From assembly GCA_964645415.1 (NCBI GenBank), contig CAZXZL010000003.1, positions 4,124 to 42,609 on the forward strand: a stretch of DNA of 38,486 nucleotides, written 5' to 3'. Below, in pieces: positions 4,976-38,072 of the stretch (its first letter is position 1; each line of letters begins with the position of its first letter). Position numbers and translations under genes: made by a program. Under the pieces are notes generated by a model. The model saw only the letters and a list, made by a program, of their open reading frames with translations. It was not told the DNA's origin and did not search any database. This DNA comes from an uncultured Methanosarcinales archaeon. GTDB lineage: Archaea > Nanobdellota > Nanobdellia > Woesearchaeales > CAZXZL01.

Positions 4976-4978
4976 ATT

Positions 4979-9951: not shown

Positions 9952-9984
9952 ATTTAATATTTTTTTAATAATTGGTGATAAAAA

Positions 9985-10578
9985 ATGTTTGAACAAATAT
10001 TCACAGAACTTGCAAATCAAGGAATCATTGATACAGCAATTCCAACTCTTTTAGTTTTTGCTCTTTTTTATGCAGTTCTTTATGAAACAGAAGTAATTTC
10101 AAAAAAGAAAGGAATTAATACAGTAATTTCATTTTCATTTGGTCTTTTATTTGCTTATTTTGGAAATCAAATTTATGTTGATTCAGGAATAACTTTAGTT
10201 CAATTAATAAATCACTCTATTTTAGATGTCACCATTATTATTTTAGCAGTTATCATGTTATTTGTATTATTAGGATCCATTGGTTATAATGGAGTTAATT
10301 TTGCAAATAGTAGTTATACTAAGTGGGGTTTTATCCTATTTTCATTATTTATTGTTGTATTTATTTTTATGCACACTGCAGGATTTTTACCAAGTAATAT
10401 TTCGAGTACTTTATCTAGTTATACTGAAAGTTTAAGCTTACTTGTTCCAATTGCAGTTTTTGGACTTGTTATTTACTTTGTTGTTAGTGAACCCGTTGAA
10501 GAAGATGATGATAAAGATAATGTTAAAGACAAAGCAAAAGAAATAATTAATGACATTGGTAAAGCTGTTGATAAATAA
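9985..10578 (+). CDS. Polytopic membrane protein, paralog 2 of 3 (unknown function)
   Basis: 197 aa with the same layout as 9388-9951. It has a GGTGAT Shine-Dalgarno and an acidic C-terminal tail (EEDDDKDNVKDK). Confidence 0.6.
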   Translation: MFEQIFTELANQGIIDTAIPTLLVFALFYAVLYETEVISKKKGINTVISFSFGLLFAYFGNQIYVDSGITLVQLINHSILDVTIIILAVIMLFVLLGSIGYNGVNFANSSYTKWGFILFSLFIVVFIFMHTAGFLPSNISSTLSSYTESLSLLVPIAVFGLVIYFVVSEPVEEDDDKDNVKDKAKEIINDIGKAVDK

Positions 10579-10608
10579 TTTATATAGAATAATTTTAATT
10601 TTTTTAAA

Positions 10609-11187
10609 ATGGCAACTTTATTAGATTTGGCTTTATTTGAATTCTTTGAACCTCTTTTCATATTTGTACTTATATATGCAATTCTTTATGGTGTTCTTAG
10701 TAAAATAAACATGTTTGGTGAAGATAGTTCATCTTTTAATGCTTTAATTTCTTTTGGAGTTTCTTTTCTTTTTATTTTATCTCCTAGTTTAAGAGAAGTA
10801 ATTTCTATTGCTCTTCCGTGGTATGCTCTTTTATTTGTCGTTTTAGGTTTTATCCTAATGTTCTTTTTATTTTTAGGTGTTGAAGATGATACTATTAAGA
10901 GTTTATTTTCTTCGAAAAAATATGGATTTGTTATATTTATTACGATTGTTATTTTTATTATAATATTTGTTTCTTCACTTATGGCAGTATATGGTGATGA
11001 TTTAAGAGATATGTCTGGAACCGATTACTCTGAAGACGATATCGAAGAAATTCCTGATGAAGCATATGCTGATAATATTGTTTTAACTTTAGTTCATCCA
11101 AAAGTTTTGGGAACATTATTTTTATTGGTATTTTCTGGTGCTGTTGTATTTTTACTTAGTTATTCTGAGTATGACATTTATGACTGA
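10609..11187 (+). CDS. Polytopic membrane protein, paralog 3 of 3 (unknown function)
   Basis: 192 aa with the same layout as the other two, plus an acidic loop (DYSEDDIEEIPDEAYAD). Confidence 0.6.
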   Translation: MATLLDLALFEFFEPLFIFVLIYAILYGVLSKINMFGEDSSSFNALISFGVSFLFILSPSLREVISIALPWYALLFVVLGFILMFFLFLGVEDDTIKSLFSSKKYGFVIFITIVIFIIIFVSSLMAVYGDDLRDMSGTDYSEDDIEEIPDEAYADNIVLTLVHPKVLGTLFLLVFSGAVVFLLSYSEYDIYD

Positions 11188-13018: not shown

Positions 13019-13113
13019 ATAATCTTTTTATTATTAATATAAATATATTTTAGTATACAAAATAATATAATAGATTAGAAAAATATATAAATTAACAAAA
13101 AGGATATTTGATA

Positions 13114-16100: not shown

Positions 16101-19100
16101 AAAAACTAGCGTATATGATTACTATTATTCTTCGGGTTCTCATAATTTTATAGATTCAGAATATCCTGAAAATTCTTTTTATGATTATTTTTATGTTAAT
16201 GAGTATACCTCTTCTGAAATTAATGACTTTAATGAGATTCTTTCTGAAGACCATATTCAAAAGTGGTTAAATGATAGAATTGGAAAGTTTAAATATGATT
16301 CTACTAAAGAAAATTTTATGTGTATTGAATATGTTGAAGAGTATATTTCAAATAAAGTAGATAACATTTTAGAATTAAAAGAGAGTTCTTCTTGTAATGA
16401 AGAGGTTAATTTAAATACTGGAGAAAGTATATCCTCGAGAATATCTACTAGTGAACGTAATAATATTATTATGCCAAATGAACCTTGTTTTAATGATCTC
16501 TTTCATCTTGAAAATATATTAAGTACCTCTTATTTACCTTTTGTTATAGATTCTTTATACTACGGAAAATCAAATATTGATAAAAATAATAGATACAATG
16601 AATTTATTGAAGAATTAATTTTACCTACTGTTTATATTGATGAAATAAGAAGAAATCATCAATCGATTTCAACATCAGATGAGAATTACAAAGAAAAGAA
16701 TCCTGAACTTAATACATACTTAAAACCATTTTCCTTTTTCTTTCAATTTTTATATCAAGATGTTGATGATAATTTAATTGTTTCTGATTTAGATGATAAA
16801 ATAAATAATTTATGTTCTGTTCCAGGGAGTTGTAATTATGAAGAATTAGATTATTTGAATTTTTCTGAATTAATTCATGAAAATAGTGATAATTTTAATA
16901 CTTTTTATTCTCCTTTTAGAGATTTTTTATTAATCCCAGATGATTTTGAGAGATTTAATTTAGACTTTAGTGAATCTGATAGTTCTGATGAAATCTATTC
17001 TAACCTTGAAAATATGTTTTCTTCAAAAGGTACCATGTGGAAAGATGATTATTTTGATATGATTTCTTTTATTAATCAAAATACTGATGGTGATTCTAAT
17101 AATTTACTTTTTGATTTTTATGAACAATTATATTCTGATTGTCTTTCTAATTTAGAATGTTCAATGTTTTTAGAATATTATAATCTTGATGAAGTCGTTG
17201 GAGAAATTCTTTTTAGATATTTTTCTGATTATTATCGATTAAATGAGATGTTTATAAGCATTGGTAGTAGTAGTTATTGGGATAATAAAAAACTATTTGT
17301 TACAGAAAGGAACATACCTTCTTTTTTATTTCCTATTGGATTAATGTATCGTTATAATACTAAATCTCTTGATGATGCATTAGATTTAGCAATCAATGAA
17401 TTTGATAATGAGATAAGTTCTGATTTAAGTTGTAATCAAATTATAAATATGGTTGATGAATATCTTTATGTTGATTATTTTAATAACAGACATTCTAGTG
17501 AATCATATTATGATGTATTTACAAGGGAAGGGGCAGGAATCGGTGCAACTGGCGATACACTCCCTATTCATTTTTATCAATCATACTCTGAAAATGAACT
17601 ATTTGAAGATTTAGAGACTGTAGATGATTGGTTTGATTTATTAATTGATGATTTATTTAATGAGTCAAGACCTTTAATGTTTGATGACTTTTCTTGTCTT
17701 AAAGAAGTTGAATCTTATGTAAATGACACATTAAACAAAATTAATGATAAATTTGAATCGAGTTCATGTAATAGTGATTTATTGTTAAGCCATTATGAAA
17801 GTGAAAAAATTGATTCAGATAGTGAAAATTTACCTAATAATTATTGTTTAAAAGAAATTCATAAATTAGACAATTTTTTATCTTCTAAAGGTTTACCTGA
17901 AATGATTGATAAATTACATAAGGGTGAAACATTAACATTTAATCTTGGACAAAGAAAATCTGACTTGAAAGATATAATGGAGACTTCACTTTATGAAAGT
18001 ATGTCTGATAATTTAAAAGGAAACTTTTTAGTCCCTTTTAATATGTTTTTTAACTTTTTAGATAATAATCAAGATAAAAACTCTTTTATAGATAATTCTT
18101 GTTACTATCCTTCATCTGATAATCATAATGATTTATTCATTTCAATAATTAGTGAACATATTGAAAAAGAATGTGAAAATAATTTTAAACCAGAAAGTTT
18201 ATTTGATAGGATATACAGTCTTAATATTATAAATGAGAATCACTTTGATAAATCTTATTTATATGATTTATTTAGTGATTTTGATGGTGAGATATGTGAT
18301 ATTCCTAGTACTGGAGAGGATTTCTTAAAAGAGATACATCAAAAAATAAGTGATGATTATAATAGTTTACATACTGATTTTATAATTTGTGACTTTGACT
18401 ATTATAATTTTAATCATGATTTATCAAAACATTTTCAAAACTCATTTAATGATTACGAATCAAATTTTTATCTTGATATCCCTTATCTTTTCTTTTCATT
18501 TTTATATGATGAAGATGTTTTAGATATTGATGGTTTAAAAACTCATGATAAAATTCTTAGTAGGCTTTTTAATTATGACTCAAAATCAAATATTCGTGGA
18601 AGTGATTTATGTGAAGAGAATTTCTTGTATTGTTTTTTTAATGAAGAGTTATTTGGTTATTATTATAATTGTTCTGATTATTCTGTTTCAGATGTTTCTC
18701 AAGATAGATCGGACTTTGTTTCACCAAGTTATATTTTAAGTGAACAATTATTTGATCCCATATCTTATGATATTCCTCTTCAAAATGTAATAGGAAGATT
18801 ATCATCTTATGTTGATAGTGATGATGATTTAGATTTTGATCAAAATGAATTCTATGATATTTTTTACAAAGAAGAACAATTTTCAACGAAAAATAATATT
18901 TTAGCTGAATCTGACCATATGAATGGTTTTTGTTATGGTAATTCATTTGAATTAAGAAAATCAAATGTTATTTTAACACAACTTAGATCTCAACAAATTG
19001 CTTTAAACGTTATAAGTGGTGCAGTTGGTTTTAAAGTAGGTTATAAATTTGGAGGTTTTATTGGTGGAAAAGCTGGTGCTGTTGCAGGAACTGGTGTTTT

Positions 19101-19275
19101 ACCGGGTATTGGTACTGGTGTTGGAGGTGCTGCAGGAACAGGATTAGGTGGTGGTTTAGGTGGGGGTATAGGATCTTTTCTTTTTTCAAGATCAACAAAT
19201 TTAGTTTATGATTTTATTATTTATCATCATGAAAGAGATCGTCTATATTGGCCAGAATCAGGGGTGGCATCATAA
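13114..19275 (+). CDS. Giant (2,053 aa) highly acidic, D/N/F/Y/S-rich surface protein with an N-terminal hydrophobic anchor, an internal ~330-380-aa duplication and a C-terminal glycine-zipper segment
   Basis: Uninterrupted ORF. The track start 13108 is TTG and the first ATG is 13114. The N-terminus is MVEYTIAHATIALLIIAVVGGVG. Duplicated blocks are visible directly (see findings). The C-terminus is GGFIGGKAGAVAGTGVLPGIGTGVGGAAGTGLGGGLGGGIG. I recognise no catalytic motif. Confidence 0.85.
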   Translation: MVEYTIAHATIALLIIAVVGGVGSTVITDAESDILGIWGEDQEEDVGFEPYEPELTQSENVVVDNVMYFKEGVEIFERISSDIVSNENQVDSITGAGFSSPVSTQDLPSDINGYTIYDLISETKNYYSDIEDPNYKDINNPCTDYLDSGNPSFKLSIDNSDEENSNQDTLNTYFCGAFELDNKDDFPDYIKYEKDDNKLTIPVSHSPFSELFLNYQNILPNEGPRTDAGQWSTGDMSHLFSESPLNEINLVFQVEDYSGDMTHIIVPFDTDPEDFEFFYFEDTELEYSIAPLVFNGGFTIPYFYLPEPCYDGDGEFEDECLGQSSGFLGSFRDYLNQNYNYPSYLFYYDSFPESEEAHWDFDEGTSFFWDIMFSDLSYIYDSISSLFLTEDDENFETDGDIFNHLDESYREGGILYMMGYHGNTSRIVLNYILEITKDNKKDMMEDFLRGDIHNAWNNAPDRIMKNLFLDFFTIEEENELRDNTISIIERSVYSDYVDNVLMLLDIEPKVTGFNNQVSDFLDQSDSKYILEDKLMEEYSESKSNFYLSTLEQMGSSNFFDAFSSIDHKILLLKNYENKNYNKKDFNLNSYLNDLSRTKSDDVIESTLKFSSIPINEDLENFIKEVGLERFHSSLENYFSSGNNWDDFFKSFTGKNFNSFDNFIYQYPYSEISSFSESELASLGIFFIIGTEKYQYKYFRDFLYNNQLEEDLYLASAQSGNNYASFEIDSPLFIDKGGENVPQNFHLISPCLTNIDLTYDKTYYEIGSNVIYFHDGVLRLSDSLESEIKEDLLCEKEFIFDPYFDLEKDDRDDLNNYLFDQYFNDDKNLFFEMIFESDFFDKNSIFEFYDNLYEECLNDLYCHFFLDAYHLDEVAGEILFQFFSGFHNFGDSFQFYPIFGNKTDGVWNFNFESTFDEGHHSYSSAKGDFFITSDNIPAFLFPIALRHRYPQSDNLNDAIDSAFNEFNKLKQIEGECSEIISLVDEYFYYDFYTKIRGKTSVYDYYYSSGSHNFIDSEYPENSFYDYFYVNEYTSSEINDFNEILSEDHIQKWLNDRIGKFKYDSTKENFMCIEYVEEYISNKVDNILELKESSSCNEEVNLNTGESISSRISTSERNNIIMPNEPCFNDLFHLENILSTSYLPFVIDSLYYGKSNIDKNNRYNEFIEELILPTVYIDEIRRNHQSISTSDENYKEKNPELNTYLKPFSFFFQFLYQDVDDNLIVSDLDDKINNLCSVPGSCNYEELDYLNFSELIHENSDNFNTFYSPFRDFLLIPDDFERFNLDFSESDSSDEIYSNLENMFSSKGTMWKDDYFDMISFINQNTDGDSNNLLFDFYEQLYSDCLSNLECSMFLEYYNLDEVVGEILFRYFSDYYRLNEMFISIGSSSYWDNKKLFVTERNIPSFLFPIGLMYRYNTKSLDDALDLAINEFDNEISSDLSCNQIINMVDEYLYVDYFNNRHSSESYYDVFTREGAGIGATGDTLPIHFYQSYSENELFEDLETVDDWFDLLIDDLFNESRPLMFDDFSCLKEVESYVNDTLNKINDKFESSSCNSDLLLSHYESEKIDSDSENLPNNYCLKEIHKLDNFLSSKGLPEMIDKLHKGETLTFNLGQRKSDLKDIMETSLYESMSDNLKGNFLVPFNMFFNFLDNNQDKNSFIDNSCYYPSSDNHNDLFISIISEHIEKECENNFKPESLFDRIYSLNIINENHFDKSYLYDLFSDFDGEICDIPSTGEDFLKEIHQKISDDYNSLHTDFIICDFDYYNFNHDLSKHFQNSFNDYESNFYLDIPYLFFSFLYDEDVLDIDGLKTHDKILSRLFNYDSKSNIRGSDLCEENFLYCFFNEELFGYYYNCSDYSVSDVSQDRSDFVSPSYILSEQLFDPISYDIPLQNVIGRLSSYVDSDDDLDFDQNEFYDIFYKEEQFSTKNNILAESDHMNGFCYGNSFELRKSNVILTQLRSQQIALNVISGAVGFKVGYKFGGFIGGKAGAVAGTGVLPGIGTGVGGAAGTGLGGGLGGGIGSFLFSRSTNLVYDFIIYHHERDRLYWPESGVAS

Positions 19276-19413: not shown

Positions 19414-20274
19414 ATGGTTTATGATAATAAAAAGGGAATGCCTGCAGTTTTAGTTTCAATTATTCTAATGACTATTGTTTTTTTAATTTTATTATCTCTT
19501 GCAGGAGAGATTATGACTTTAGTTGTATCTGGAACTGATGATTTACGTTGTACTTGGAGTGCTGTTTTACATTCACATACATCAACTTTTTTTATGGGTG
19601 ATGGATTTGAACTAGATTGTAAAATAGATACTATTTTTATTAGTCTACAAAGAGACAATGATGAAAACCCTACAGATATTACTTTTCGTCAGGATGGTAA
19701 TGACCAGAGTATAGGTGTTCCTCAAAGATATCTCAATGCTGTTGAATCATGGAATCAAAACTCTTATGGAGAAGGTTTTTCATTTAATAATCCAAGCCAT
19801 AGGATTAGATATTTTTATGATACAAAAATTTCTCGTGAAATGATTGATTGTAAACAAAAGTTAGGAGATGGAAATATTGAACTTTTTGGTAATGATCCTA
19901 GTGGAAATACTTGTGTTATTTGTACTCGTTTTGTAATCCCAAATGAAAATGATTTAAATTATTTAAAACATATAACTCAAGGTGAATTAGTGGGTGAATT
20001 TTTAAGATCAAATCCTTATTCTTTTACTGATATTGACCATCAAAAATCATTGTGGGAAAAAATTAGATTTGAAGGACAAAGTGACCTTTTTGATACTATT
20101 GGTTATGATATGGATGAAAATCTTCTTATTGTTTATTCTGTATCAAGTGGTGGCCCTCTTGAGAGTATTCCTGTTATTGGACATTTATTTAGTGAAGATG
20201 ATAATGTAGGTCATAATATTTTTTTAACAACACCTGATGATTTAAGTAATTATTGTGATACTGTTGCAAACTGA
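19414..20274 (+). CDS. Pilin-like N-terminus protein (class III signal peptide-like), orphan globular domain
   Basis: 286 aa. The N-terminus MVYDNKKG-MPAVLVSIILMTIVFLILL has a basic patch, a small residue and about 20 hydrophobic residues. Six Cys are present. Confidence 0.6.
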   Translation: MVYDNKKGMPAVLVSIILMTIVFLILLSLAGEIMTLVVSGTDDLRCTWSAVLHSHTSTFFMGDGFELDCKIDTIFISLQRDNDENPTDITFRQDGNDQSIGVPQRYLNAVESWNQNSYGEGFSFNNPSHRIRYFYDTKISREMIDCKQKLGDGNIELFGNDPSGNTCVICTRFVIPNENDLNYLKHITQGELVGEFLRSNPYSFTDIDHQKSLWEKIRFEGQSDLFDTIGYDMDENLLIVYSVSSGGPLESIPVIGHLFSEDDNVGHNIFLTTPDDLSNYCDTVAN

Positions 20275-20281
20275 GGTTAAA

Positions 20282-20425
20282 ATGTTAAATAAAAAATCAA
20301 TGGAATTTTCGTATCTTGCTGGATTTTTACTAGCATTACTTTTTTTATTTTTATTAATACTTTTTATTGGAAATATGGCTTCTGAAAGTTTTGGAGTTAT
20401 TTCCTTTCTTGAAAGTGTTTTTTAA
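20282..20425 (+). CDS. 47-aa micro-protein with a pilin-like N-terminus (below the ORF-track cutoff)
   Basis: I translated this myself: MLNKKSMEFSYLAGFLLALLFLFLLILFIGNMASESFGVISFLESVF. A GAGG site lies 5 nt upstream of the ATG, and the gene fills the gap between two operon genes. Confidence 0.45.
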   Translation: MLNKKSMEFSYLAGFLLALLFLFLLILFIGNMASESFGVISFLESVF

Positions 20426-20433
20426 GAGGTGAT
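20426..20433 (+). promoter_or_regulatory. Shine-Dalgarno site (GAGGTGAT)
   Basis: It lies 3 nt upstream of ATG 20437. The same GGTGA/GAGGTGA core recurs upstream of ATGs at 9985, 11714, 12165, 27108(-), 29029, 30617, 31890, 32749, 33665 and 37377. Confidence 0.6.
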
Positions 20434-20436
20434 AAT

Positions 20437-20721
20437 ATGGAAGGTAGAGTTTTAGTTGGACTTATAATTGTGCTTTTATTAATTGTAGTTTTAATGCCGA
20501 TTTTTAGTGGAACAATTATTGATTCTTTTCAAGGGATGATGAGTGATAGAGAGGATGCAATAGGTGGTGCTTCAGGAGAAAAATGTGTTAGTAGTGTTAC
20601 TCCAAATAATATTTGTGAAGAGGAATACCAAAGACTTGATTATTATGAACAAGTAACTTATGAAATTGTTGCAGGAGACTATGAAGATTGTGAAGGTCAT
20701 TGTTATAGGCCAGTTTCTTAA
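20437..20721 (+). CDS. Small secreted or anchored protein (N-terminal TM, Cys-containing acidic domain)
   Basis: 94 aa. MEGRVLVGLIIVLLLIVVLMPIF is followed by an acidic domain with 4 Cys. A strong Shine-Dalgarno site precedes it. Confidence 0.6.
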   Translation: MEGRVLVGLIIVLLLIVVLMPIFSGTIIDSFQGMMSDREDAIGGASGEKCVSSVTPNNICEEEYQRLDYYEQVTYEIVAGDYEDCEGHCYRPVS

Positions 20722-20723
20722 GA

Positions 20724-21227
20724 ATGAAAAAAGCAGAAATGACTATGAGGGAATTAGTAGAGTTGATTATTGTAGCGATGGCTATTTTATTTGTATTTTT
20801 ACCAATTACTATGAGTATTTATCAATCTTTTTTTGTATCAGAATATCCTCTTTTAAATAATAGAATTGAAGATTTAAAATATACTCTTGAATCAACTCAC
20901 TCTTTTGATGATGATTTTAATATTAAATTTAGTTTTCCTTCTTATGATGAACTTGAAGGAGCTTTTGATGGTTTATTGAATTTTTTTGAGAATGATAATT
21001 ATTATAATATTTATTTTAAAAGTGATTCTCGTTTGAGTGAAATTTGTTATTCTGTTGATAATAATAGATACTGTAAAGATGTTAATTCTGATATACAATT
21101 TTATAAAAACGGAGAGAGATGTGAAGATTACTGTGTTGAAAATATTTATCGAGATAGTGAGGGAATAAGAAATTTAGAAATTTCATTTAATAGAGACTAT
21201 TTTGAAATTGAAGGGGTGGTATATTGA
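20724..21227 (+). CDS. Pilin-like N-terminus protein
   Basis: 167 aa. The N-terminus is MKKAEMTMRELVELIIVAMAILFVFL. The start lies 3 nt after the upstream stop. Confidence 0.6.
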   Translation: MKKAEMTMRELVELIIVAMAILFVFLPITMSIYQSFFVSEYPLLNNRIEDLKYTLESTHSFDDDFNIKFSFPSYDELEGAFDGLLNFFENDNYYNIYFKSDSRLSEICYSVDNNRYCKDVNSDIQFYKNGERCEDYCVENIYRDSEGIRNLEISFNRDYFEIEGVVY

Positions 21228-22114
21228 ATAAGAAAACTCAAAGTGACTTTTTAATACTTACTAAAGAATTATTTCAAATATTGCTTGTAGCAGGACCTAT
21301 ACTTATTCCTTTATTAAGTTATATTTCTATGATGAGCAGTAGTGAAGATTTTAATGATATATTATTATCTAAAGAAATGAAAATAACTTTGAATTCTATT
21401 GCTGGTATTGATTATCCTTCAGAATCTTATTTAGTTTCAGATGTTGGTTCTAGAATGATTGATATAAGTTCTGATTCTTTTTATATAAGTTCTGATGGTA
21501 GACACGATAAACAAATTAATTCAAAACTTTATCCCACATATTCTACTAGTTTTCAAGATACTAATATGTATACAACTTTTTCTACATTAGTCTCTTTTGA
21601 AAGAGATGATTCAATTGTAGGTTTTAGACGTTTTAGAGATTCATCATTAAAAGTTCATGTTCCGGATATTGAAACTTCAAATTATTTTTGGGATAAGAAA
21701 ACAATTTGTTTTAAAACAGATGATAATAGTTTAAGAAACTATATTGAAAGAGAGATTAGGGAATTGAATTCATATTTTGATATGCCTGGTTGTGATTTAA
21801 GTAACACTTTTGTTTATTCAGATGGTTTTAGGTCTTGTAATGTAACAATTCATTTAGAATCATCTAATAAAGAAAATCATGTATCTTTTCAATATTCTTC
21901 AAGAGAAAAAAATAAACTTTTTGCATTATTATTTAATGAAATGGTTTATGGCTTTGAAATTTATGATTATTCTATGAAATCAGGAGATTATAATTTAATT
22001 AAATTCAATTTTGATGAAAATGATTTGTTATATCGTTATTTACATGATGCTTTTTTAAATTTTTATGGCGAAATTAATTGTGATGAGAGGGAAAGATTAG
22101 ATGAGATTAAATAA
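21224..22114 (+). CDS. Pilin-like N-terminus protein
   Basis: 296 aa. A TTG start overlaps the upstream stop by 4 nt. The N-terminus is (M)NKKTQSDFLILTKELFQILLVAGPILIPLL. Confidence 0.5.
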   Translation: MNKKTQSDFLILTKELFQILLVAGPILIPLLSYISMMSSSEDFNDILLSKEMKITLNSIAGIDYPSESYLVSDVGSRMIDISSDSFYISSDGRHDKQINSKLYPTYSTSFQDTNMYTTFSTLVSFERDDSIVGFRRFRDSSLKVHVPDIETSNYFWDKKTICFKTDDNSLRNYIEREIRELNSYFDMPGCDLSNTFVYSDGFRSCNVTIHLESSNKENHVSFQYSSREKNKLFALLFNEMVYGFEIYDYSMKSGDYNLIKFNFDENDLLYRYLHDAFLNFYGEINCDERERLDEIK

Positions 22115-22577
22115 AAAATCAGAAGTTGGTGATTTAATTTTAAATTTATTTAGAGTCATACCGGTCATAATTATAATGACTTTTGTGTTAAATTTATTTT
22201 ATGGAAGACTTCCAGAAGTTCTTGAAAATTATAATGAGATTGATTTTTATTATTTAGGTAAAAGAATTTTAACAACTGATATAACAACTTCTGATTTTGG
22301 TGTTATTGATATAGATAAGATTACTGAAGAAAATATAAGAAATTTATTTATCACAGATGAGTTTGGTGCATGTTATAATATAACTTATCTTAAGGGAGGG
22401 GGTTATGAAAATGAGTATATGTGTTCTTCAGAGATTCATTCCTCTTTTTATTTACAATTTCAAGAATTTTCTAACCTTCGAGATAGTTATGAATATTCAT
22501 ATTTTGGTGTAGTTGAAACAGATAATTTAAAATCACCTGCTAATATAGATGTTATATTTTTTGATAAAAATGTTTGA
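22101..22577 (+). CDS. Pilin-like N-terminus protein
   Basis: 158 aa. The N-terminus is MRLNKKSEVGDLILNLFRVIPVIIIMTFVL. It overlaps the upstream gene by 14 nt. Confidence 0.55.
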   Translation: MRLNKKSEVGDLILNLFRVIPVIIIMTFVLNLFYGRLPEVLENYNEIDFYYLGKRILTTDITTSDFGVIDIDKITEENIRNLFITDEFGACYNITYLKGGGYENEYMCSSEIHSSFYLQFQEFSNLRDSYEYSYFGVVETDNLKSPANIDVIFFDKNV

Positions 22578-23106
22578 TTTTTTTAATAATAAAAAAGGAT
22601 TACTTGGAGATATCATCCTTATTTCATTACTACTTGTAACTGTAACAACTTTCTATTTTATTTTTTCAAGTGTTATTGAAAGTGATATAATTGAGTCTGA
22701 TCTTCATCTTCATGAAAATAATGCTTATGTGATTCCTTCTGTACTTTTAAGAAGTCAAGTTATGTGCTCAGGAGGAATTACAAATTATATCCAAATGAAG
22801 GAGTTTTGTAATGAAGAAGAAATTGAAGAACACATCGAAGATTTATTTAACTTATTTGATTTATCAGGTTTAGTTTATTTTCAACCCGATTCACAGTATG
22901 AAAGATGGTGTTTTCAAATTGAAAAAAGTCTTGATGTTCTAGCTAGACATTCTTCAGATATTTGTGAGAGAGAACAATATGGTTCTGATCCTAATTTTAT
23001 TTATCGTGATGGTGAATTAGATGTGGATTATGATGGAAGTAGTGATAATATTAGGTATCATTTTTATATTGGTGATGAAAGTTATGGATTTTATTTTATA
23101 TTGTAA
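22570..23106 (+). CDS. Pilin-like N-terminus protein
   Basis: The track ORF starts at 22549. I prefer ATG 22570 (MFDFFNNKKGLLGDIILISLLLVTVTTFYFIF), which overlaps the upstream stop by 8 nt. Confidence 0.55.
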   Translation: MFDFFNNKKGLLGDIILISLLLVTVTTFYFIFSSVIESDIIESDLHLHENNAYVIPSVLLRSQVMCSGGITNYIQMKEFCNEEEIEEHIEDLFNLFDLSGLVYFQPDSQYERWCFQIEKSLDVLARHSSDICEREQYGSDPNFIYRDGELDVDYDGSSDNIRYHFYIGDESYGFYFIL

Positions 23107-23163
23107 TTATTAAAAATAGATTTATTTAATTTGAATTGTTTATTTTAAATTTTAGTGGTTTAA

Positions 23164-25617
23164 ATGGTTTTTAAAAATAAAGTTGGCTTATCTTATAGTA
23201 TCTTACTTTTTGGAGTAAGTGTTTTAGTTTTTATCTCTGCTTTAATGGTGGGACAATCTAATTTAATGGATGCTGTAGATGTATATGCTCCTAACTCATC
23301 AATAGATATATTTAAATTATCATATTTATCTGATTCACTTAACCAATATTATAATGTAAAATCCGAAAATATTCTTAATAAACATTTAGATAACTTTCCG
23401 AAAGGAGAATTTGGATTTTATTTAATTAATAGTAAAAGTAAAGATAGATATTTGTTTAATCTTGAAGAGAGTCTTTATGATATTTATCCTATTAATTTAG
23501 AAGATAGTTCAGTAAATGTACTTATGAGTGAAGATCCTGAAATATATTCTACTTTTTCTGATCTTTCTGTTAGCACTTCAATATTTACTTCAAATTATGT
23601 TAATTACCGTTTATCTGAGAGAACTCTTAAAACAGGAGGTAATAATGTTTGTGATATCTCTTCTGATTTTAATTTTAATGAATTCTCAAATTGTAATCAT
23701 ATTTTTGAATCAGTATATGATATAACATCTGATCCAGAATTATCTCTTTTATTTACTGCTATATCTTATTTAGATACTAATTGTGATAATAGACCTTCTT
23801 TTGATGTTTTAAGATCAATTAGACGTGATGAACCTTCTTATTATATAGAAAATACAGATACTTTAATTGGTCGTATATTAAATCTTTATGAAGATGTTCA
23901 ACAATTAGATTTACAAAAATATGATGAAAGATTTTTATTTCTCTATTTACATCATAGAGGAGGTTATGATGAAATAAAAGAATTCCTTAATCGTGGCTAT
24001 CCTTATCAAGAAGCTATTTCAAGACATTGCTTTTCTTTCTTTTCTAATTATTGGACAGATGTTTTTGAAGATTTAGATGAAAATATTAAATCTTCTTATT
24101 TATATAAACAAGAAGAATATTTTTGTCGTGGTCGTGATATTGGAATGAACTATCCAAATACTGTTCTTCAAGTTTATAATAAAATGTGTGATGATGCGGG
24201 ATTTGAACTTGTTGAAGATGAAATCGAACATAAATTTTCTCCTGCGCAATTACATCGTTTATTTGATCAAAATGTTGATATATTTAGACCAATCATCCCA
24301 TTTTCTTTAGAGTTATATCAAGATGATATTTTAAAAAATTGTTTTTTCTCTCATGAAAATATATCTAACTGTTTAAATAAAAAATTAGAATCAAAAATTA
24401 ATGATAAAAATGAAATGATTGAAGAAGAATTTGATTTAATTGATCAAGGTTCTAATTATGATGACTTTAAAATTTCTCTTTTAGAGAGTAATAAAGTAGA
24501 TAATTTTATGGATTTTGCTTATCAACACTCAAAAATTGAAAGATGTATTACTATTAAAAATAAATTAAATGAAATTGATTATAGTTTAAACTCTGATGGT
24601 TGCTTATGTTTAAATTTAGGTGATGATATTTCGATTTCAGGTGAATATTTAGAATATAATGATTATGATTGGAATCTTCCATTGAGTGATTATGTTGGAC
24701 ATGGAGAGAGTATTTCTATTGAATTTAATAACATAGATGAAGAGTTTTTTCTCTCGACATCTTCTTTAGAAAATAATTGTGATTTCTATACAGACAATTT
24801 AAATCCAAAATTTTATCCCGCCCATTTTTCTGACTCTGAATTAGATTTTTTTGGTGTTTTAGAAATTGATAATGTAAATAGTAGGCAAATTGGATTTGAT
24901 AATTTTGATGCAAATATTTATCAACCAGATTATCCTTCTGAAGAATTTTTTGTAAGTTGGAATGATATTTCTAATGAATTATTTGGCTTGATGGGTTATG
25001 AATTAAGAATTTACTCTTATGATCCTTTAGAAGGAAGAGTTTCAAATACTTCTTCAAATTATTTTTTAAATCAAGATGATTCTTTTGAATTTGAGTATAA
25101 CTTTTCAGTTTCTGAAGAATTAGATAAACCTTTTGTTGATGGAAGTTCTTTTACTGTTAATATTTATACCAAAGATTGGTATGGTAATAAAAGAGAAGTT
25201 TTTTCAGAATATTTTGAATTTGAAGATGACTTACCTTTTGATTTTGCTAACTTATATGATGGTGATTCAATTTGTGATGGTTTAAGTAAAATTGAATCAA
25301 GTGATGAAGGAGAAATTGAGTTAAATTGGGATTTTAATAATTATTTAATGGATGGGACAGATATAACTAAAGACGCTTATGAAAACTATATTAAAAGACA
25401 TTTCAGTCATTATTTAGTTGGTTACAAAGAGTTTAGTGAAGAAGATTATGATGGAGTTAGTATTGATGAGTTTGATACAATAAAAGTGGATGATAGAAAC
25501 CTTTTATTAGATGACCTATCGAACCAAACAGATTATTCTGTATTTGTTCAACAAATTGATGTTTCAGAAAATTCAATTGATTATCTTTGTGATTATTCTG
25601 CATATGAAAGTATTTAA
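23164..25617 (+). CDS. Large (817 aa) surface protein with a pilin-like N-terminus and probable C-terminal beta-sandwich (FN3-like) repeats
   Basis: The N-terminus is MVFKNKVGLSYSILLFGVSVLVFISALMV. The C-terminal ~230 aa show two segments with an FN3-like pattern (..FFVSWNDIS..YELRIYSYD..FTVNIYTKDWYGN.. and ..IELNWDF..YLVGYKE..YSVFVQQIDVSEN). This domain call is pattern-based only. Confidence 0.6.
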   Translation: MVFKNKVGLSYSILLFGVSVLVFISALMVGQSNLMDAVDVYAPNSSIDIFKLSYLSDSLNQYYNVKSENILNKHLDNFPKGEFGFYLINSKSKDRYLFNLEESLYDIYPINLEDSSVNVLMSEDPEIYSTFSDLSVSTSIFTSNYVNYRLSERTLKTGGNNVCDISSDFNFNEFSNCNHIFESVYDITSDPELSLLFTAISYLDTNCDNRPSFDVLRSIRRDEPSYYIENTDTLIGRILNLYEDVQQLDLQKYDERFLFLYLHHRGGYDEIKEFLNRGYPYQEAISRHCFSFFSNYWTDVFEDLDENIKSSYLYKQEEYFCRGRDIGMNYPNTVLQVYNKMCDDAGFELVEDEIEHKFSPAQLHRLFDQNVDIFRPIIPFSLELYQDDILKNCFFSHENISNCLNKKLESKINDKNEMIEEEFDLIDQGSNYDDFKISLLESNKVDNFMDFAYQHSKIERCITIKNKLNEIDYSLNSDGCLCLNLGDDISISGEYLEYNDYDWNLPLSDYVGHGESISIEFNNIDEEFFLSTSSLENNCDFYTDNLNPKFYPAHFSDSELDFFGVLEIDNVNSRQIGFDNFDANIYQPDYPSEEFFVSWNDISNELFGLMGYELRIYSYDPLEGRVSNTSSNYFLNQDDSFEFEYNFSVSEELDKPFVDGSSFTVNIYTKDWYGNKREVFSEYFEFEDDLPFDFANLYDGDSICDGLSKIESSDEGEIELNWDFNNYLMDGTDITKDAYENYIKRHFSHYLVGYKEFSEEDYDGVSIDEFDTIKVDDRNLLLDDLSNQTDYSVFVQQIDVSENSIDYLCDYSAYESI

Positions 25618-28989: not shown

Positions 28990-29028
28990 ATGTTATAAGA
29001 AAACTTTATATTAATATTGGTGAGCCTT

Positions 29029-29547
29029 ATGTTTAAAAAATCTCAGATCCATACTGAAGTCTTTGTCTATATCTTGGCCCTTGTTATTGTCAGTTTTATC
29101 GTAGTATATGGATATAGTGCTGCAAGAGACTTTCAAGAAACAACTCATCAAGTTAATTTATTAACATTTAAAACAGAACTAGAAGGACAATTATCTTCTT
29201 ATGTTGGTGACCTTGGTTCTAGACGTAATAAAGAAGTTCGTGTTCCACAAGGTTTTGATGAGGTTTGTTTTGTTGATTTAACGATGGACTTTGAGGATTA
29301 TGAAAATCAAGATGATCTTTGGGAAGGTTTGGCCAATGATTATCCTCTAATATTTACTTCTTGGATGAATCAAGTTTCAGGAAATATTTTTCTTTTAAGA
29401 GGTGGAGTTCCAGAATTTATTCTTTACGTTCCCGATATGGAACTTGAATCAGAGAGGGTTTTTATATGTGAGGAGATTCTTGGTAGAAATTTAGAGTATT
29501 CTTTTAGAGGTAAAGGGGGTTCTGTTGAGGTTACAGGTATTAACTAA
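29029..29547 (+). CDS. Pilin-like N-terminus protein (minor-pilin candidate)
   Basis: The track start 29017 is TTG. I prefer ATG 29029, with GGTGA at 29019-29023. The N-terminus is MFKKSQIHTEVFVYILALVIVSFIVVYGY. Confidence 0.6.
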   Translation: MFKKSQIHTEVFVYILALVIVSFIVVYGYSAARDFQETTHQVNLLTFKTELEGQLSSYVGDLGSRRNKEVRVPQGFDEVCFVDLTMDFEDYENQDDLWEGLANDYPLIFTSWMNQVSGNIFLLRGGVPEFILYVPDMELESERVFICEEILGRNLEYSFRGKGGSVEVTGIN

Positions 29548-29549
29548 TA

Positions 29550-30617
29550 ATGGTAATGAAAATATTTAATAAAAAAGCAGGAATTATGGATGCCCAATTT
29601 GGTTGGGTATTTGCATTTATGATTGGAGTTATTATACTGTCTTTATTTACTGCTGTCGCTTTTCAAATTAGAAGTTCTTCTCAACAAAGAATATCTTATG
29701 AAATTCTAAAAACATTTAGATCTGTTTTTACTTCAGGTGGTACTGAAGTTGGGAGATTTTTTCAACTTGATTTAGTAAATGTGATTATGGATTATTCTTG
29801 TGTTGGAGGTGAGACATCTATTTCAGTTGAGGGGTTTTCTGAAGAGATACCTCTTGTTGTTTTTTCTCAAGAAAATTTAATTGGTAATCGATTTTATATA
29901 TATTCTACTGAATGGGATGTACCTTTTTTATCTAATTCAGTTGTATACTTGGCTTCAGAAAATTTTTATTTTTATATGGTTGAACCAAATGAAACTAGCT
30001 CTAATTATGATTCTTACAGAAGAGCAGTTGAATCTATTCCAAGTAGGTTTCCTTTTGGAATTATTGAAGAAGGTGAAGAAGTAAATGTTCCAGAAGAGGC
30101 AGATACAAGAGTAATAGTTTTTGAAGATATAGAAGAGGAATATAATTCAAATCTTAATGGTTTTTTTGAAGATAATTTTCCTAATTCTGTTATTGAAGTA
30201 TCTCCTGATTTATCTTCGGGTAGTTTTTTTGGTAATTTAACATATTATGATTATGGTGATTACAATAATCCCATTTCTCAAGAGCATTATTTTGGGACTC
30301 CTCTTTTAGTAGGTTCTTTTTTATCCTCTTCTGAGAACTATCGGTGTTTTTTTGATGAGATGGTTAATGACTTAGAAAATGTTCTTGATCTTTTTAAAAG
30401 ACGTTCTGAAAGATTAGTTGATTATTATAATAATGCTGATGATTATGATTGTTTTTATGTATATAATAAATTAATTGAGAAAATAGAAGATTATGAGAAT
30501 TTAATAAATAATTTTGATTATAATTATGATTCCTTTAAAAATTGGTATGATTTATATGATGGAATATTTAATATGAAGAATGAAGCAGATACTAAATCTT
30601 GTGAGGTGGTTTACTAA
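29550..30617 (+). CDS. Pilin-like N-terminus protein (minor-pilin candidate, 355 aa)
   Basis: The N-terminus is MVMKIFNKKAGIMDAQFGWVFAFMIGVIILSLF. The start lies 3 nt after the upstream stop. Confidence 0.6.
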   Translation: MVMKIFNKKAGIMDAQFGWVFAFMIGVIILSLFTAVAFQIRSSSQQRISYEILKTFRSVFTSGGTEVGRFFQLDLVNVIMDYSCVGGETSISVEGFSEEIPLVVFSQENLIGNRFYIYSTEWDVPFLSNSVVYLASENFYFYMVEPNETSSNYDSYRRAVESIPSRFPFGIIEEGEEVNVPEEADTRVIVFEDIEEEYNSNLNGFFEDNFPNSVIEVSPDLSSGSFFGNLTYYDYGDYNNPISQEHYFGTPLLVGSFLSSSENYRCFFDEMVNDLENVLDLFKRRSERLVDYYNNADDYDCFYVYNKLIEKIEDYENLINNFDYNYDSFKNWYDLYDGIFNMKNEADTKSCEVVY

Positions 30618-31099
30618 TGAAAAAATCACAGATTAAAATGGCTGAAACAGTATCTGTTCTTGTTATTTTTATTCTTGTCACTTTTATAGGATTCATTTTT
30701 TACTCTAACTATGAACAGACTCAATTAAGGAGAATTGAAAATAGATTTTCTGAATATGCTTCATTAGAAACTGTTCAATTGATAACATATCTTCCTGAGT
30801 TAAGATGTCCAACTACTGAAATGTCAAGAGGTTGTATTGATCTTTTAAAACTTAAATCTTTTATTAATAAAAGTGATGAAGGTCAAGAAGAGTTTCTTTT
30901 AGATTATATTGATACTTTAGGAAATAGTCGGATTCAGTTAAAAACTCATTATCCGAATAATTATTCTTTTTTAGTTTTTGATAACCTGCAAGAGGATGCA
31001 CCAAGAATTGATACTACATTTGTTCATGTTTCTTTGTATGATCCATTAAATTCAACTTATAATTATGGTGTTTTGGAGGTGGAACATGCTTCAAATTAA
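30617..31099 (+). CDS. Pilin-like N-terminus protein (minor-pilin candidate)
   Basis: The N-terminus is MKKSQIKMAETVSVLVIFILVTFIGFIFY. There is a TAATG stop/start overlap and a GAGGTGG site upstream. Confidence 0.6.
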   Translation: MKKSQIKMAETVSVLVIFILVTFIGFIFYSNYEQTQLRRIENRFSEYASLETVQLITYLPELRCPTTEMSRGCIDLLKLKSFINKSDEGQEEFLLDYIDTLGNSRIQLKTHYPNNYSFLVFDNLQEDAPRIDTTFVHVSLYDPLNSTYNYGVLEVEHASN

Positions 31100-31544
31100 T
31101 TCTAAATTTGGACAAACTGAAATAATTGGTTTACTTGTATTTATTTTATTATTATTTTTAGGGGTACTATTTGTTGTAATGAATTCTTTAGGTGATTCTG
31201 GTACTTTGCGAGAGGATTTTAGATATTCAGTATATGCTAGATCCTCACTTAATACTTTTTTATCAATGACTTTAGATGATGGTAGAGATTATTCAGAATT
31301 ACTTGTGGATAGTATTTCTGATGAGGATGAAGGAAATATTGATTATTTGAGTAATGTCTCTTTTGATATCTTAAATGAGACTTTTATTTATATGAATCAA
31401 GATTTTCATTACACAGTTGTTCACGAAGATGAATATTACATTGATTTAGGTCCTGGTTGTGCTGGTCGTAATACTGAAGCATCTAATTACCCTATCCCTG
31501 TTGGAGATGGTACTACTGTTTATTTTCAGATGGAAGTTTGTTAA
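31086..31544 (+). CDS. Pilin-like N-terminus protein (minor-pilin candidate)
   Basis: The track ORF starts at 31065. I prefer ATG 31086 (MLQINSKFGQTEIIGLLVFILLLFLGVLFVV), preceded by GGAGGTGG. It overlaps the upstream gene by 14 nt. Confidence 0.55.
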   Translation: MLQINSKFGQTEIIGLLVFILLLFLGVLFVVMNSLGDSGTLREDFRYSVYARSSLNTFLSMTLDDGRDYSELLVDSISDEDEGNIDYLSNVSFDILNETFIYMNQDFHYTVVHEDEYYIDLGPGCAGRNTEASNYPIPVGDGTTVYFQMEVC

Positions 31545-31592: not shown

Positions 31593-31862
31593 ATGGTAAA
31601 TATCACAAAAAAATCAGAAGGTCTTAGTATGAATCTTATTGTTATCACTGCTATTGCTCTTGTTGTTTTAGTTGTACTTGTAGCAGTATTCACTGGAAGA
31701 ATGGGAGGTTTCACTTCTGATGTTGATTCTGGTACCCAATGTGTGGAAGGTTTTGGAGGAGAATGTGTTTCTGAAGACTCAGACATAGGAGATAGAGAAA
31801 TTTTAGGTTATGGTGAGTTAGTAGGTTGTGATGATAATCAAATTTGTGTAGAGCGAGAATAA
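31593..31862 (+). CDS. Mini-pilin 1 of 4 (class III signal peptide, Cys4 C-terminal domain)
   Basis: MVNITKKSEG-LSMNLIVITAIALVVLVVLVAVFTGRMGGFT is followed by a roughly 45-aa acidic domain with 4 Cys. It is paralogous to the next three genes. Confidence 0.75.
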   Translation: MVNITKKSEGLSMNLIVITAIALVVLVVLVAVFTGRMGGFTSDVDSGTQCVEGFGGECVSEDSDIGDREILGYGELVGCDDNQICVERE

Positions 31863-31889
31863 TTATAATTAATTTTGAGGTGTATAATA

Positions 31890-32156
31890 ATGAAAAAAGG
31901 TCAAGGATTAAGTATGAATGTTGTTGTAATCGCAGCTGTTGCTGTTATTGTTTTAGTAGTTTTAGTTGCAATCTTTACTGGACAGATGGGAGGTTTCACT
32001 GAAGGTCTTGAAGGAACAACTGAGTGTGAAAGTATAGGTGGAACTCAATGTTATGATGAAGAGAGTTTACCTGAAAATCATACTATTATTGGAAGAGGTT
32101 CTGGTGCAGGTTGTGAAGATGAAGATCAACCAATTTGTGCAAGAGATGATGGTTAG
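31890..32156 (+). CDS. Mini-pilin 2 of 4
   Basis: The track start 31875 is TTG. I prefer ATG 31890, after GAGGTG. The sequence is MKKGQG-LSMNVVVIAAVAVIVLVVLVAIFTGQMGGFT followed by a Cys4 domain. Confidence 0.75.
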   Translation: MKKGQGLSMNVVVIAAVAVIVLVVLVAIFTGQMGGFTEGLEGTTECESIGGTQCYDEESLPENHTIIGRGSGAGCEDEDQPICARDDG

Positions 32157-32189
32157 TAAAATTTAACTTTTTTATAATTTAATTTGAAA

Positions 32190-32453
32190 ATGAAAAAAAG
32201 TCAAGGTCTTAGTATGAATGTAATTGTAATTAGTGCTGTTGCTTTAGTAGTATTAGTAGTTTTAGTTGCAATTTTCACTGGACAGATGGGAGGTTTCACT
32301 TCTGATGTTGATTCTGGTACTAGTTGTGAAACTGGTTTTGGTGGTGAATGTATGTCTGAAGATGATTCTAATTTACTTAATGGTACTATTTTAGGTAGAG
32401 GAGAATCAGTTGGTTGTGAACCTAATGAAGTTTGTTTTAGTGAGAACAATTAA
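32190..32453 (+). CDS. Mini-pilin 3 of 4
   Basis: The track start 32184 is TTG and the ATG is at 32190. The sequence is MKKSQG-LSMNVIVISAVALVVLVVLVAIFTGQMGGFT followed by a Cys4 domain. A 35-nt tract (32286-32320) is identical to 31701-31735. Confidence 0.75.
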   Translation: MKKSQGLSMNVIVISAVALVVLVVLVAIFTGQMGGFTSDVDSGTSCETGFGGECMSEDDSNLLNGTILGRGESVGCEPNEVCFSENN

Positions 32454-32471
32454 TTTTTTTAGTTGATATTT

Positions 32472-32723
32472 ATGAAAAAAGGTTATTCGTTAAGTATGAG
32501 TGTTATTGTTACAACAGTCTTAGCATTAATTGTATTAGTAATATTAATTGCAGCTTTTACAGATTATGTTGGCGATGCTGGTGATGACATTGAACATTTA
32601 GACAATGATTGTGAAGTTGCAGGTGGGACATGTGTTTCACAAAGAGATAGTGAATGTAGAGATATAGGAGGATTTGTTATTGATAGAGATTGTCCTTCAA
32701 ATCAATTTTGTTGTATGGTATAA
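32472..32723 (+). CDS. Mini-pilin 4 of 4 (divergent, 6-7 Cys)
   Basis: The track start 32463 is TTG and the ATG is at 32472. The sequence is MKKGYS-LSMSVIVTTVLALIVLVILIAAF followed by a Cys-rich domain ending in CCMV. Confidence 0.7.
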   Translation: MKKGYSLSMSVIVTTVLALIVLVILIAAFTDYVGDAGDDIEHLDNDCEVAGGTCVSQRDSECRDIGGFVIDRDCPSNQFCCMV

Positions 32724-37364: not shown

Positions 37365-37371
37365 GAGGTGA
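37365..37371 (+). promoter_or_regulatory. Shine-Dalgarno site (GAGGTGA)
   Basis: It lies 5 nt upstream of ATG 37377. The track ORF start at 37368 is a GTG inside this motif. Confidence 0.55.
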
Positions 37372-37376
37372 CACTA

Positions 37377-38072
37377 ATGAAATTTAAAAAAAATTTTAAA
37401 AATATATTATTACCATTATTATTTACCCTTTTAATAGTTTTCGAATTTGTTTCATCAATGGGGTTATTAGATGGAGAAATGATGTTTGTTCAACTTTTTT
37501 TAAACTTTAACTATCTAATTTTATTTGGAGTATTTCTATTAGTTTATACACAGATAAAGAGTCTTTCTAAGTATCCTTTATATTTTATCTTTTTTGGAGC
37601 TATAATAAATTCTATCTATCTTTATAATAGTTTAGGTGTTTATTCAATCTTGATTATAATTACTTCAGTATTGGGTATTTATGTAACATCAAGTTTATTT
37701 AGACCTAGTAGAAAGTTAAAAAAAGGAATTAGTAAAGTAGAATTATTAAAAAGAGAACTAAAAGATAAATTAGATCAAGATGTTGAAATTTACCATGGCT
37801 CTGAAAGGATTTCTAATAAAGATCTTGAGATTTATCATGATGAAAATGGTGAACCTAAAATTAGGCCATCAAAAAAATCAGTTGAAGAAATTGATATTAA
37901 CACTGCATCTGTTAGTGAATTACAAGAAATTAAATTTATTGGTAAGTCAAGAGCAGAAGAGATTATTAGAAAAAGACCATTTTCAAGTATTGATGAATTA
38001 ATTAATGTTTCAGGGATTACAAAAAATCGTTTAAAACAGATTAAAAAAGAAGGTAAAGCTTATTTAAGTTAA
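37377..38072 (+). CDS. Membrane-anchored ComEA-like helix-hairpin-helix DNA-binding protein
   Basis: The N-terminal part has about four TM segments. The C-terminus, IDINTASVSELQEIKFIGKSRAEEIIRKRPFSSIDELINVSGITKNRLKQIK, matches the ComEA tandem HhH pattern (NtAs..L..l.GIG...A..Ii..R.F.s...L..V.GI....l..i). Confidence 0.75.
   Translation: MKFKKNFKNILLPLLFTLLIVFEFVSSMGLLDGEMMFVQLFLNFNYLILFGVFLLVYTQIKSLSKYPLYFIFFGAIINSIYLYNSLGVYSILIIITSVLGIYVTSSLFRPSRKLKKGISKVELLKRELKDKLDQDVEIYHGSERISNKDLEIYHDENGEPKIRPSKKSVEEIDINTASVSELQEIKFIGKSRAEEIIRKRPFSSIDELINVSGITKNRLKQIKKEGKAYLS

Follow-up and report, generated by a model that had tools for sequence, protein, structure and literature searches.

A tandem array of four predicted pilin-like genes with small cysteine-rich heads in an archaeal contig, assigned by sequence profile to a large unnamed family of Woesearchaeota and Nanoarchaeota

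Introduction

Archaea of the DPANN group are mostly uncultured episymbionts, and their means of host attachment are largely unexplained. Among the filament subunits described from bacteria, the Flp/Tad pilins and Geobacter PilA-N consist, when mature, of mostly one hydrophobic helix with a minimal head; they are processed at G↓xxxxEY or G↓FTLIE sites (↓, cleavage site) and carry essentially no disulfide-rich head. In the pilE/pilS antigenic variation of Neisseria, short tracts are exchanged between pilin paralogs. Within the archaea, the Epd pilins of M. maripaludis are cleaved by EppA at KG↓Q sites with a glutamine required at position +1 (PMC4371748, Table 1), and major pilin genes, whether tandem or single, are as a rule found outside the ATPase operon (PMC4858521). 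Archaeal pilins bonded via cysteines have already been documented (PMC4858521; bioRxiv 10.64898/2026.04.22.720090), and DPANN "dark matter" pilins, unrecognisable and encoded beside type IV pilus genes, were predicted earlier (PMC6393860). Here, we describe four tandem genes (genes 1 to 4) on a stretch of 38,486 nucleotides (nt) of contig CAZXZL010000003.1 (the window), which has a guanine plus cytosine (GC) content of 26% and is archaeal, bearing the archaeal markers Taw3/TYW3, Hjc and PTH2. As judged by profile homology, the four genes are members of a very large, unnamed family of the Woesearchaeota and Nanoarchaeota, and they probably encode type IV pilin-like subunits of a DPANN surface filament, most likely the major ones.

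Results

Family membership and N-terminal motif

A first-pass annotation, made from the letters of the window without database searches, had described four adjacent genes of about 83–89 amino acids (aa) with a common N-terminal motif and, in genes 1–3, a helix ending in FTG(Q/R)MGGFT. The open reading frames on the + strand (Table 1) and their alignment bear out all of this. Whole-length alignment of the four products gives 23 invariant columns, and nucleotide identity between the copies is 54–71% overall. With the gene 3 product as single query against a database of 5.8 billion proteins, the products of genes 1 and 2 were retrieved at E = 7e-29 and E = 3e-20, respectively, and that of gene 4 matches the family profile at E = 6e-27; hence, homology of the four genes is far above chance. 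For gene 2, the mechanical open reading frame begins at a TTG at 31875, and the ATG at 31890, with GAGGTG located 8 nt upstream, was taken as the start. The protein thus delimited is identical to one family member retrieved (P0005).

Searching 1.84 billion cluster representatives with a nine-sequence family profile returned 3,930 proteins at E ≤ 1e-3, of which 1,214 reach E ≤ 1e-10, so that at 50% identity the family comprises no fewer than 3,930 clusters; the best 150 matches listed are 67–156 aa long, mostly 80–100 aa. A second search with a 44-sequence profile found more than 2,090 clusters at 90% identity, where the only informative naming was "hypothetical protein", Candidatus Woesearchaeota, two names given by the Joint Genome Institute look mis-annotated, and none of the members bears a precomputed Pfam domain. 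Scanning the species representatives of GTDB with a six-sequence N-terminal alignment identified 35 loci, all of them in metagenome-assembled genomes (MAGs) of Woesearchaeota, Nanoarchaeota or Nanobdellati or in third-party annotation bins with implausible labels. No Pfam or NCBIfam model matched genes 1–4, scans extended to the neighbors and to 44 family members gave only spurious matches to single-transmembrane-helix proteins and no described pilin family, and the family profile found nothing below E = 1 in the PDB. Literature searches likewise turned up only generic predictions of divergent DPANN pilins and no account of the present family, of the five-family module or of the defensin-like head described below.

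Among 240 family members, the N-terminus follows the pattern [KR][KR][AGS]-Q-G-[LIM]-S-x-N-x-I-I, succeeded by at least 14 hydrophobic residues (typically about 22) and then by FTGR-G-F. The leaders are of class III type, reading KKS↓E, KKG↓Q, KKS↓Q and KKG↓Y in genes 1 to 4, with K or R at position −2 in 237 and A, G or S at position −1 in 238 of the 240 members. Cleavage is accordingly predicted at K-[S/G]↓Q/E/Y and more likely there than at G↓LSMN, since the former site recurs in all five co-located gene families as well as in the EppA substrates (PMC4371748) and, in keeping with archaeal rules, places a small residue at −1 after K/R at −2. The mature start at LSMN expected in the first-pass annotation is thus the less likely one, and its mature size of 60–70 aa gives way to a predicted 79–84 aa, or 77–82 aa if cleavage were at G↓LSMN. 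Ratios of nonsynonymous to synonymous substitution rates (dN/dS) are 0.02–0.2 in the N-terminal part versus 0.25–0.7 in the heads, with values >1 in two duplicate pairs for which estimates are noisy. This combination of conserved helix and variable head matches the type IV pilin pattern.

Conserved module and filament machinery

Directly 5' of genes 1–4, four overlapping or abutting genes encode larger pilin-like proteins (Table 1). When co-location was checked by tblastn in about 36 diverse loci of relatives, one to four mini genes were directly preceded by the same four genes, in unchanged order, in 15–18 of them, two to four tandem mini genes being present in about half of the loci. In the window as in the relatives, the products of all four upstream genes carry an N-terminus of the K/R-[GAS]↓Q type ahead of a hydrophobic stretch. 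None of the four has a Pfam match, PDB searches with 29017–29547, 29550–30617 and 30617–31099 gave nothing, and a word-based homolog search with the 160-aa protein found only two close orthologs, both "hypothetical". Considering their N-termini and fixed position, these proteins are putative minor pilins or components of a priming complex. Further upstream, the window encodes a type II/IV secretion ATPase and a probable membrane platform protein, the latter assigned mainly because it is adjacent to the ATPase.

Basic N-terminus, hydrophobic helix, prepilin-like neighbors, T2SSE ATPase and the weak T2SSF match together bear out the pilin-like nature that had been proposed for the four genes. 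In the resulting scheme, the precursors would enter the membrane by their N-terminal hydrophobic helix, and a class III (prepilin) signal peptidase, which would be encoded elsewhere in the genome, would cut off the basic leader of 4–8 residues. The ATPase and platform proteins (2645–7177) would then polymerise the subunits into a filament with the near-invariant helix as core and the head of about 45 residues facing outward, while the four larger upstream proteins would prime or cap the filament as minor pilins.

Cysteine pattern and head domain

Six cysteines are present in 165 and four in 65 of the 240 members. The dominant spacing, C-x6-C-x5-C-x12-C-x8-CC, was found in 144 members, over which the family median is 6, 5, 12, 8 and 0 residues against 6, 7, 11, 5 and 0 in gene 4. 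The column patterns in a 124-sequence alignment are CCCCCC (87 sequences), CxCxCC (21), CCxCCx (8) and others with one or two sequences each, the eight CCxCCx sequences being genes 1–3 and their orthologs. Gene 4, taken in the first-pass annotation for divergent and endowed with extra cysteines, does have six of them, and it is not divergent but represents the family norm (87/124). Genes 1–3 are, judged from the alignment, a derived four-cysteine form that has lost the Cys3/Cys6 pair; their spacing is C-x7-C ... C-x5/7-C, in place of the C-x5-6-C initially read. Cysteine losses are paired (C2 goes with C4, and C3 with C6), which suggests disulfides C2–C4 and C3–C6 and, by elimination, C1–C5. 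This predicted connectivity would give the head three disulfides in gene 4 and two in genes 1–3.

AlphaFold2 (AF2) models built from a 124-sequence alignment have a mean predicted local distance difference test score (pLDDT) of 78 for gene 4 and 77 for gene 3, with a helix at residues 9–40 and 9–43, respectively, exceeding a pLDDT of 90 in its hydrophobic core, and a small, three-stranded head in both. Comparing the models with the PDB by Foldseek gave beta-defensins as eight of the ten top matches for gene 4 (hBD-1, hBD-2 and crocodile defensin among them), at E = 1.2–5.2 and probability ≤0.54 and thus not significant, with a target-normalised template modelling (TM) score of 0.59–0.65 and a root mean square deviation (rmsd) of 2.0–2.3 Å over 35–37 columns. 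No defensin match was obtained with the gene 3 model. At the profile level, the family gives a weak match to the tick carboxypeptidase inhibitor 2k2z (E = 3), and three members match Pfam AtDEF-like (best E = 1.5e-5). Net charge of the head is −10 to −12 in the window genes, with a family median of −2. The cysteine consensus of beta-defensins is C-x4-8-C-x3-5-C-x9-13-C-x4-7-CC; the family median and gene 4 come near it, but its ranges are wide. Cysteine spacing, a GG-x-C motif and the connectivity deduced from paired loss would fit this signature, which we regard as a lead only; the likeness is probably convergent and gives no sign of antimicrobial function.

A different head on the same helix, CxxxC...CxC or CxxxC...C...CCC, recalling the cysteine-stabilised alpha/beta (cis-defensin) arrangement, occurs in about 27 of 243 sampled members (Table 1), so that the conserved helix is combined with at least two kinds of disulfide knot. 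One gene (locus L009, 8822–9142) encodes 12 cysteines, resembling two six-cysteine knots in tandem on one helix, and four members (P0060, P0067, P0113 and P0150) have extra cysteine-rich C-terminal extensions. Besides, an N-x-T sequon is located in the same alignment column of the heads of gene 2 (NHT, 32058–32066) and gene 3 (NGT, 32376–32384; approximate coordinates), is absent from genes 1 and 4 and, at any head position, is found in only 14 of the 240 members.

History of the array

Two orthologous loci, L001 from an NCBI Woesearchaeota MAG and L004 from ENA, share the flanks of the array, being bordered by TYW3 and the four pilin-like genes at one end and by an MscS-like gene at the other. 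Locus L001 has three mini genes (A, B and C) and no counterpart of gene 3, and L004 has four (A, B, B' and C). According to segment identity, gene 1 is of type A, gene 2 of type B and gene 4 of type C. Gene 3 combines an A-type head (68% identity to gene 1) with a B-type 5' part (Q at +1, V, FTGQ). By these comparisons, the window lineage and L004 acquired the extra middle copy independently of each other. Synonymous divergence (dS) between paralogs is 0.6–0.9, with types A, B and C forming orthologous groups that span three genomes; the duplications are therefore old, at variance with the recent duplication originally considered. Unequal crossover between genes 2 and 1 was rejected as origin of gene 3: the hybrid would be second in the array, whereas gene 3 is third, which makes duplication followed by conversion likelier. 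Both L004 (k141_810551) and L041 (k141_711751) are found in ENA assembly ERZ27266011, the window genome and the L004 population both being present in this assembly. With A-B-A/B-C and A-B-B'-C arrays in one assembly, two related Woesearchaeota with different sets of predicted pilins co-occur.

Gene 3 has a mosaic region at the helix-head junction that matches gene 2 in its first 24 nt and gene 1 in its last 35 nt (Table 1), and the overlap of both tracts, ATGGGAGGTTTCACT, is common to genes 1, 2 and 3. The 35-nt identity between genes 1 and 3 noted at first sight is exact and ends on both sides, whereas the string shared by genes 2 and 3 (31977–32000 and 32277–32300) is 24 and not 25 nt long, its supposed first base, c, being t in gene 2. 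Permuting the polymorphic sites in the manner of Sawyer/GENECONV gives p<1e-4 for the tract of genes 1 and 3 (Bonferroni ≤0.001). Hence, the recombination among copies that had been suggested stands for this pair in the very type of test proposed for it; for genes 2 and 3 the result is marginal, with p = 0.002–0.07 varying with the sequence set. Two GGA codons are present in genes 1, 2 and 3 and in none of the orthologs, and gene 2 has G where its three B-type orthologs all have D. A stretch of 6,240 nt over the array is identical in a second public ENA contig of 65,539 nt (the longest contig with these proteins has 65,714 nt), which weakly argues against a one-off chimeric assembly.

A scan for sigma-70 promoters and terminators is uninformative for an archaeon, and TATA-like boxes upstream of genes 1 and 3, seen by eye only, have little weight in sequence of such low GC content.

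Further features of the window

A second pilin-like cluster of seven genes lies between the machinery genes and the array (Table 1). No Pfam match was found for any of the seven, and a weak relative was seen for the first gene only, at a single other locus (L008). On account of its short basic N-termini and hydrophobic helices, the cluster may be another pilin or minor-pilin set. A giant open reading frame of 2,055 aa (13108–19275, + strand), located between the ATPase/platform genes and this cluster, has an N-terminal hydrophobic helix and no Pfam match and may encode an adhesin or surface protein. At 199–1020 (+), a 273-aa protein with an N-terminal hydrophobic segment shows matches to Kazal-type PF00050 (E = 7e-10), PF07648 and pacifastin-type PF05375. 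Such animal-type cysteine-rich serine-protease-inhibitor domains are unusual for an archaeon and constitute a second small, disulfide-rich "eukaryote-like" module on the contig. Downstream of SpoIIM-like and rhomboid genes, three successive paralogous-looking membrane proteins (187, 197 and 192 aa; 9388–11187, +) have weak matches only, to DUF4131, a ComEC N-terminal-type domain. Finally, a membrane-anchored protein (37368–38072, +) whose C-terminal part is a helix-hairpin-helix DNA-binding domain (PF12836 HHH_3, E = 6e-15) resembles a ComEA-like DNA receptor and, being encoded on one contig with the pilus genes, hints at DNA uptake.

Table 1. Positions of the genes and tracts discussed. Coordinates refer to the window, except for alternative-head members, which are listed by identifier or by position in their own loci.
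Feature	Position	Strand	Description
Secretion/assembly ATPase, type II/IV family	2645–4975	+	776 aa; PF00437 T2SSE, E = 2e-12
Probable membrane platform protein	4979–7177	+	732 aa; PF00482 T2SSF, E = 0.011, below Pfam cut-off
Second pilin-like cluster, seven genes	19414–25617	+	286, 94, 167, 296, 158, 185 and 817 aa; short basic N-termini and hydrophobic helices
Four overlapping/abutting pilin-like genes	29017–31544	+	176, 355, 160 and 159 aa; short basic N-terminus of K-[GAS]↓Q type and hydrophobic helix
Gene 1, putative mini-pilin type A	31593–31862	+	89 aa, 4 Cys; N-terminus MVNITKKS↓EGLSMN; orthologs L001 gene A, L004 gene a
Putative conversion tract in gene 1	31701–31735	+	35 nt, exact match to 32286–32320 in gene 3, ending on both sides
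Gene 2, putative mini-pilin type B	31890–32156	+	88 aa, 4 Cys; MKKG↓QGLSMN; orthologs L001 gene B, L004 genes b and c
Gene 3, extra copy	32190–32453	+	87 aa, 4 Cys; type A head, B-like 5' part
Mosaic region of gene 3	32277–32320	+	first 24 nt identical to gene 2 (31977–32000), last 35 nt to gene 1
Gene 4, putative mini-pilin type C	32472–32723	+	83 aa; canonical six-Cys head, C-x6-C-x7-C-x11-C-x5-CC
Alternative-head family members	P0026, P0034, P0037, P0058, P0060; L006 6001–6264; L009 6001–6273; L038 5160–6895		

Discussion

Several observations weigh against assigning the four products to a filament. The strict FlaFind pattern fails at both candidate cleavage sites, due to G at +2 of the one and Q at −2 of the other, and no known pilin model among Pfam, NCBIfam and PDB sequence profiles matches the genes. 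The ATPase lies 25 kb from the array, no ATPase appeared in the 6 kb around the mini genes of the other loci, and a prepilin peptidase (Peptidase_A24) was found neither in the window nor in the 10 kb upstream. In addition, the predicted helix is followed by a Gly-rich linker of low confidence (pLDDT about 62) and may be shorter than in classical pilins. This linker would also suit small signal-anchored surface proteins that remain membrane-bound as monomers and display the disulfide knot as a receptor or for contact with a host, as would the single N-terminal transmembrane-like helix, the tiny head, the missing match to pilin hidden Markov models and the fact that the spurious Pfam matches are all to single-pass membrane proteins. 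However, a monomeric anchor would have no need for near-invariant S(+4) and N(+6) and for K-[GAS]-Q across thousands of clusters, and co-linearity with four prepilin-like genes points to a multi-subunit assembly; we therefore consider this explanation unlikely. Even less probable, to a degree that we give it very little credence, are secreted defensin-like peptides acting as toxin, antimicrobial or signal, where the N-terminal part would be a long Sec-type signal or pro-region cut near FTG↓R and a knot of about 45 residues would be freed. The dominant six-cysteine spacing and GG-x-C would fit the beta-defensin signature, the paired losses of C2/C4 and C3/C6 would agree with beta-defensin connectivity, the top Foldseek matches of gene 4 are beta-defensins with a target-normalised TM score of 0.63–0.65, and AtDEF-like matches three members. 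Nevertheless, the heads are mostly anionic whereas defensins are cationic, the N-terminus is the most conserved part of the protein, unlike in Sec signal peptides, and its hydrophobic stretch of about 22–25 residues is long for a Sec h-region. Moreover, Foldseek E-values around 1 are not significant, the gene 3 model lacks a defensin match, and the neighboring genes are pilin-like and not immunity or export genes. A type IV pilin-like subunit, as proposed above, agrees with both the N-terminal conservation and this neighborhood.

Regarding the identical tracts, local gene conversion at the helix-head junction of genes 1, 2 and 3 is the likely explanation. Alternatively, the tracts might result from purifying selection on the peptide combined with strong codon bias in a genome of 26% GC, or from an assembly artefact. 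Indeed, all A-type orthologs keep the peptide MGGFTSDVDS, genes 1 and 3 use the same codon for 69% of their shared residues overall, a max-chi-square test for a single breakpoint in gene 3 is marginal (p = 0.05–0.08), and only three window-specific sites are common to genes 1, 2 and 3, with clustering that is not significant (p = 0.24). The last two results speak against conversion. In contrast, the orthologs use other codons for the same peptide (GGT, TTT, ACA and TCA versus GGA, TTC, ACT and TCT), showing that the peptide does not force the nucleotides, and the flanking helix region of genes 1 and 3 displays a run of synonymous differences. Together with the significant permutation result and the identical sequence in a second public contig of different size, this renders selection or artefact without conversion rather unlikely. 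What conversion homogenises here is a conserved segment and not the variable surface. Surface variation or mixed filaments, which the first-pass annotation raised as possible outcomes of recombination among the copies, stay conjectural.

The large unannotated family probably supplies the main filament subunit of Woesearchaeota and Nanoarchaeota. Five gene families travel together, the shared K-[GAS]↓Q motif is a testable processing site, and the compact disulfide knot with its defensin-like cysteine logic bears on protein-fold evolution and provides a handle for detecting filaments. Going further, one could envisage a hitherto unrecognised DPANN-wide class of major pilins combining the helix with a genuine beta-defensin-type knot and four fixed minor pilins in a host-attachment filament of Woesearchaeota, a possibility that we deem doubtful. 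To our knowledge, the beta-defensin fold has been described essentially from animals. If the topology were confirmed, it would be a prokaryotic, that is, archaeal, occurrence of that fold, and the array of head variants, combined with gene conversion, would amount to a system for varying host or surface specificity.

Among the systems described, the Epd pilins, with EpdE (MMP1685) as major pilin, EpdA–D as minor pilins and EppA as peptidase, are among the closest in design, likewise featuring a small pilin with K/R-G/A↓Q and Gln at +1 (PMC4371748), several larger minor pilins accompanying one small major pilin and a major pilin gene apart from the ATPase operon. Neither sequences nor profiles revealed any similarity to Epd. 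The mini-pilins also lack E at +5, having G(+2), S(+4) and N(+6), their head is a cysteine knot and not a glycosylated domain, and no EppA-like gene was seen here. PilA1–PilA6 of Haloferax volcanii are also paralogous major pilins with an almost fully conserved hydrophobic domain and variable heads, encoded apart from pilB/pilC (PMC4371748). They belong, however, to a different family (arCOG02416), are larger, lack a cysteine knot and are not found as four tandem genes following a fixed module of minor pilins. Small size, singled out as unusual in the first-pass annotation, and a disulfide-locked head, called notable there for an archaeon, are features already documented, as are tandem major-pilin genes (PMC4858521, PMC4371748, bioRxiv 10.64898/2026.04.22.720090).

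The mini-pilins share the plan of a dominant helix with the bacterial Flp/Tad and PilA-N subunits and differ from these in being archaeal and about 80 aa long. With the beta-defensin/trans-defensin fold, represented by hBD-1, CpoBD13 and tick carboxypeptidase inhibitor domains, the head has in common six cysteines at similar spacing with a terminal CC, the GG-x-C before C2 and the deduced C1–C5, C2–C4 and C3–C6 pairing, and the predicted three-stranded sheet superposes at 2.0–2.3 Å over 35–36 residues, a similarity that is not significant. Unlike defensins, it is anionic, archaeal and fused to a pilin-type helix, and in genes 1–3 two of the three disulfides would be kept; convergence of small disulfide knots is common. 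The likely exchange of a short tract, as between genes 1 and 3, recalls pilE/pilS. Contrary to that system, every copy in the array is a complete gene having a separate start codon, exchange would affect the conserved helix-head junction and not a variable region, and neither silent cassettes nor a dedicated recombination signal were identified. Hence, the tandem array and the conversion tract are ordinary pilin biology, whereas the size of the family, its missing annotation, the architecture of the head and the module are what is new here on a type IV pilin plan.

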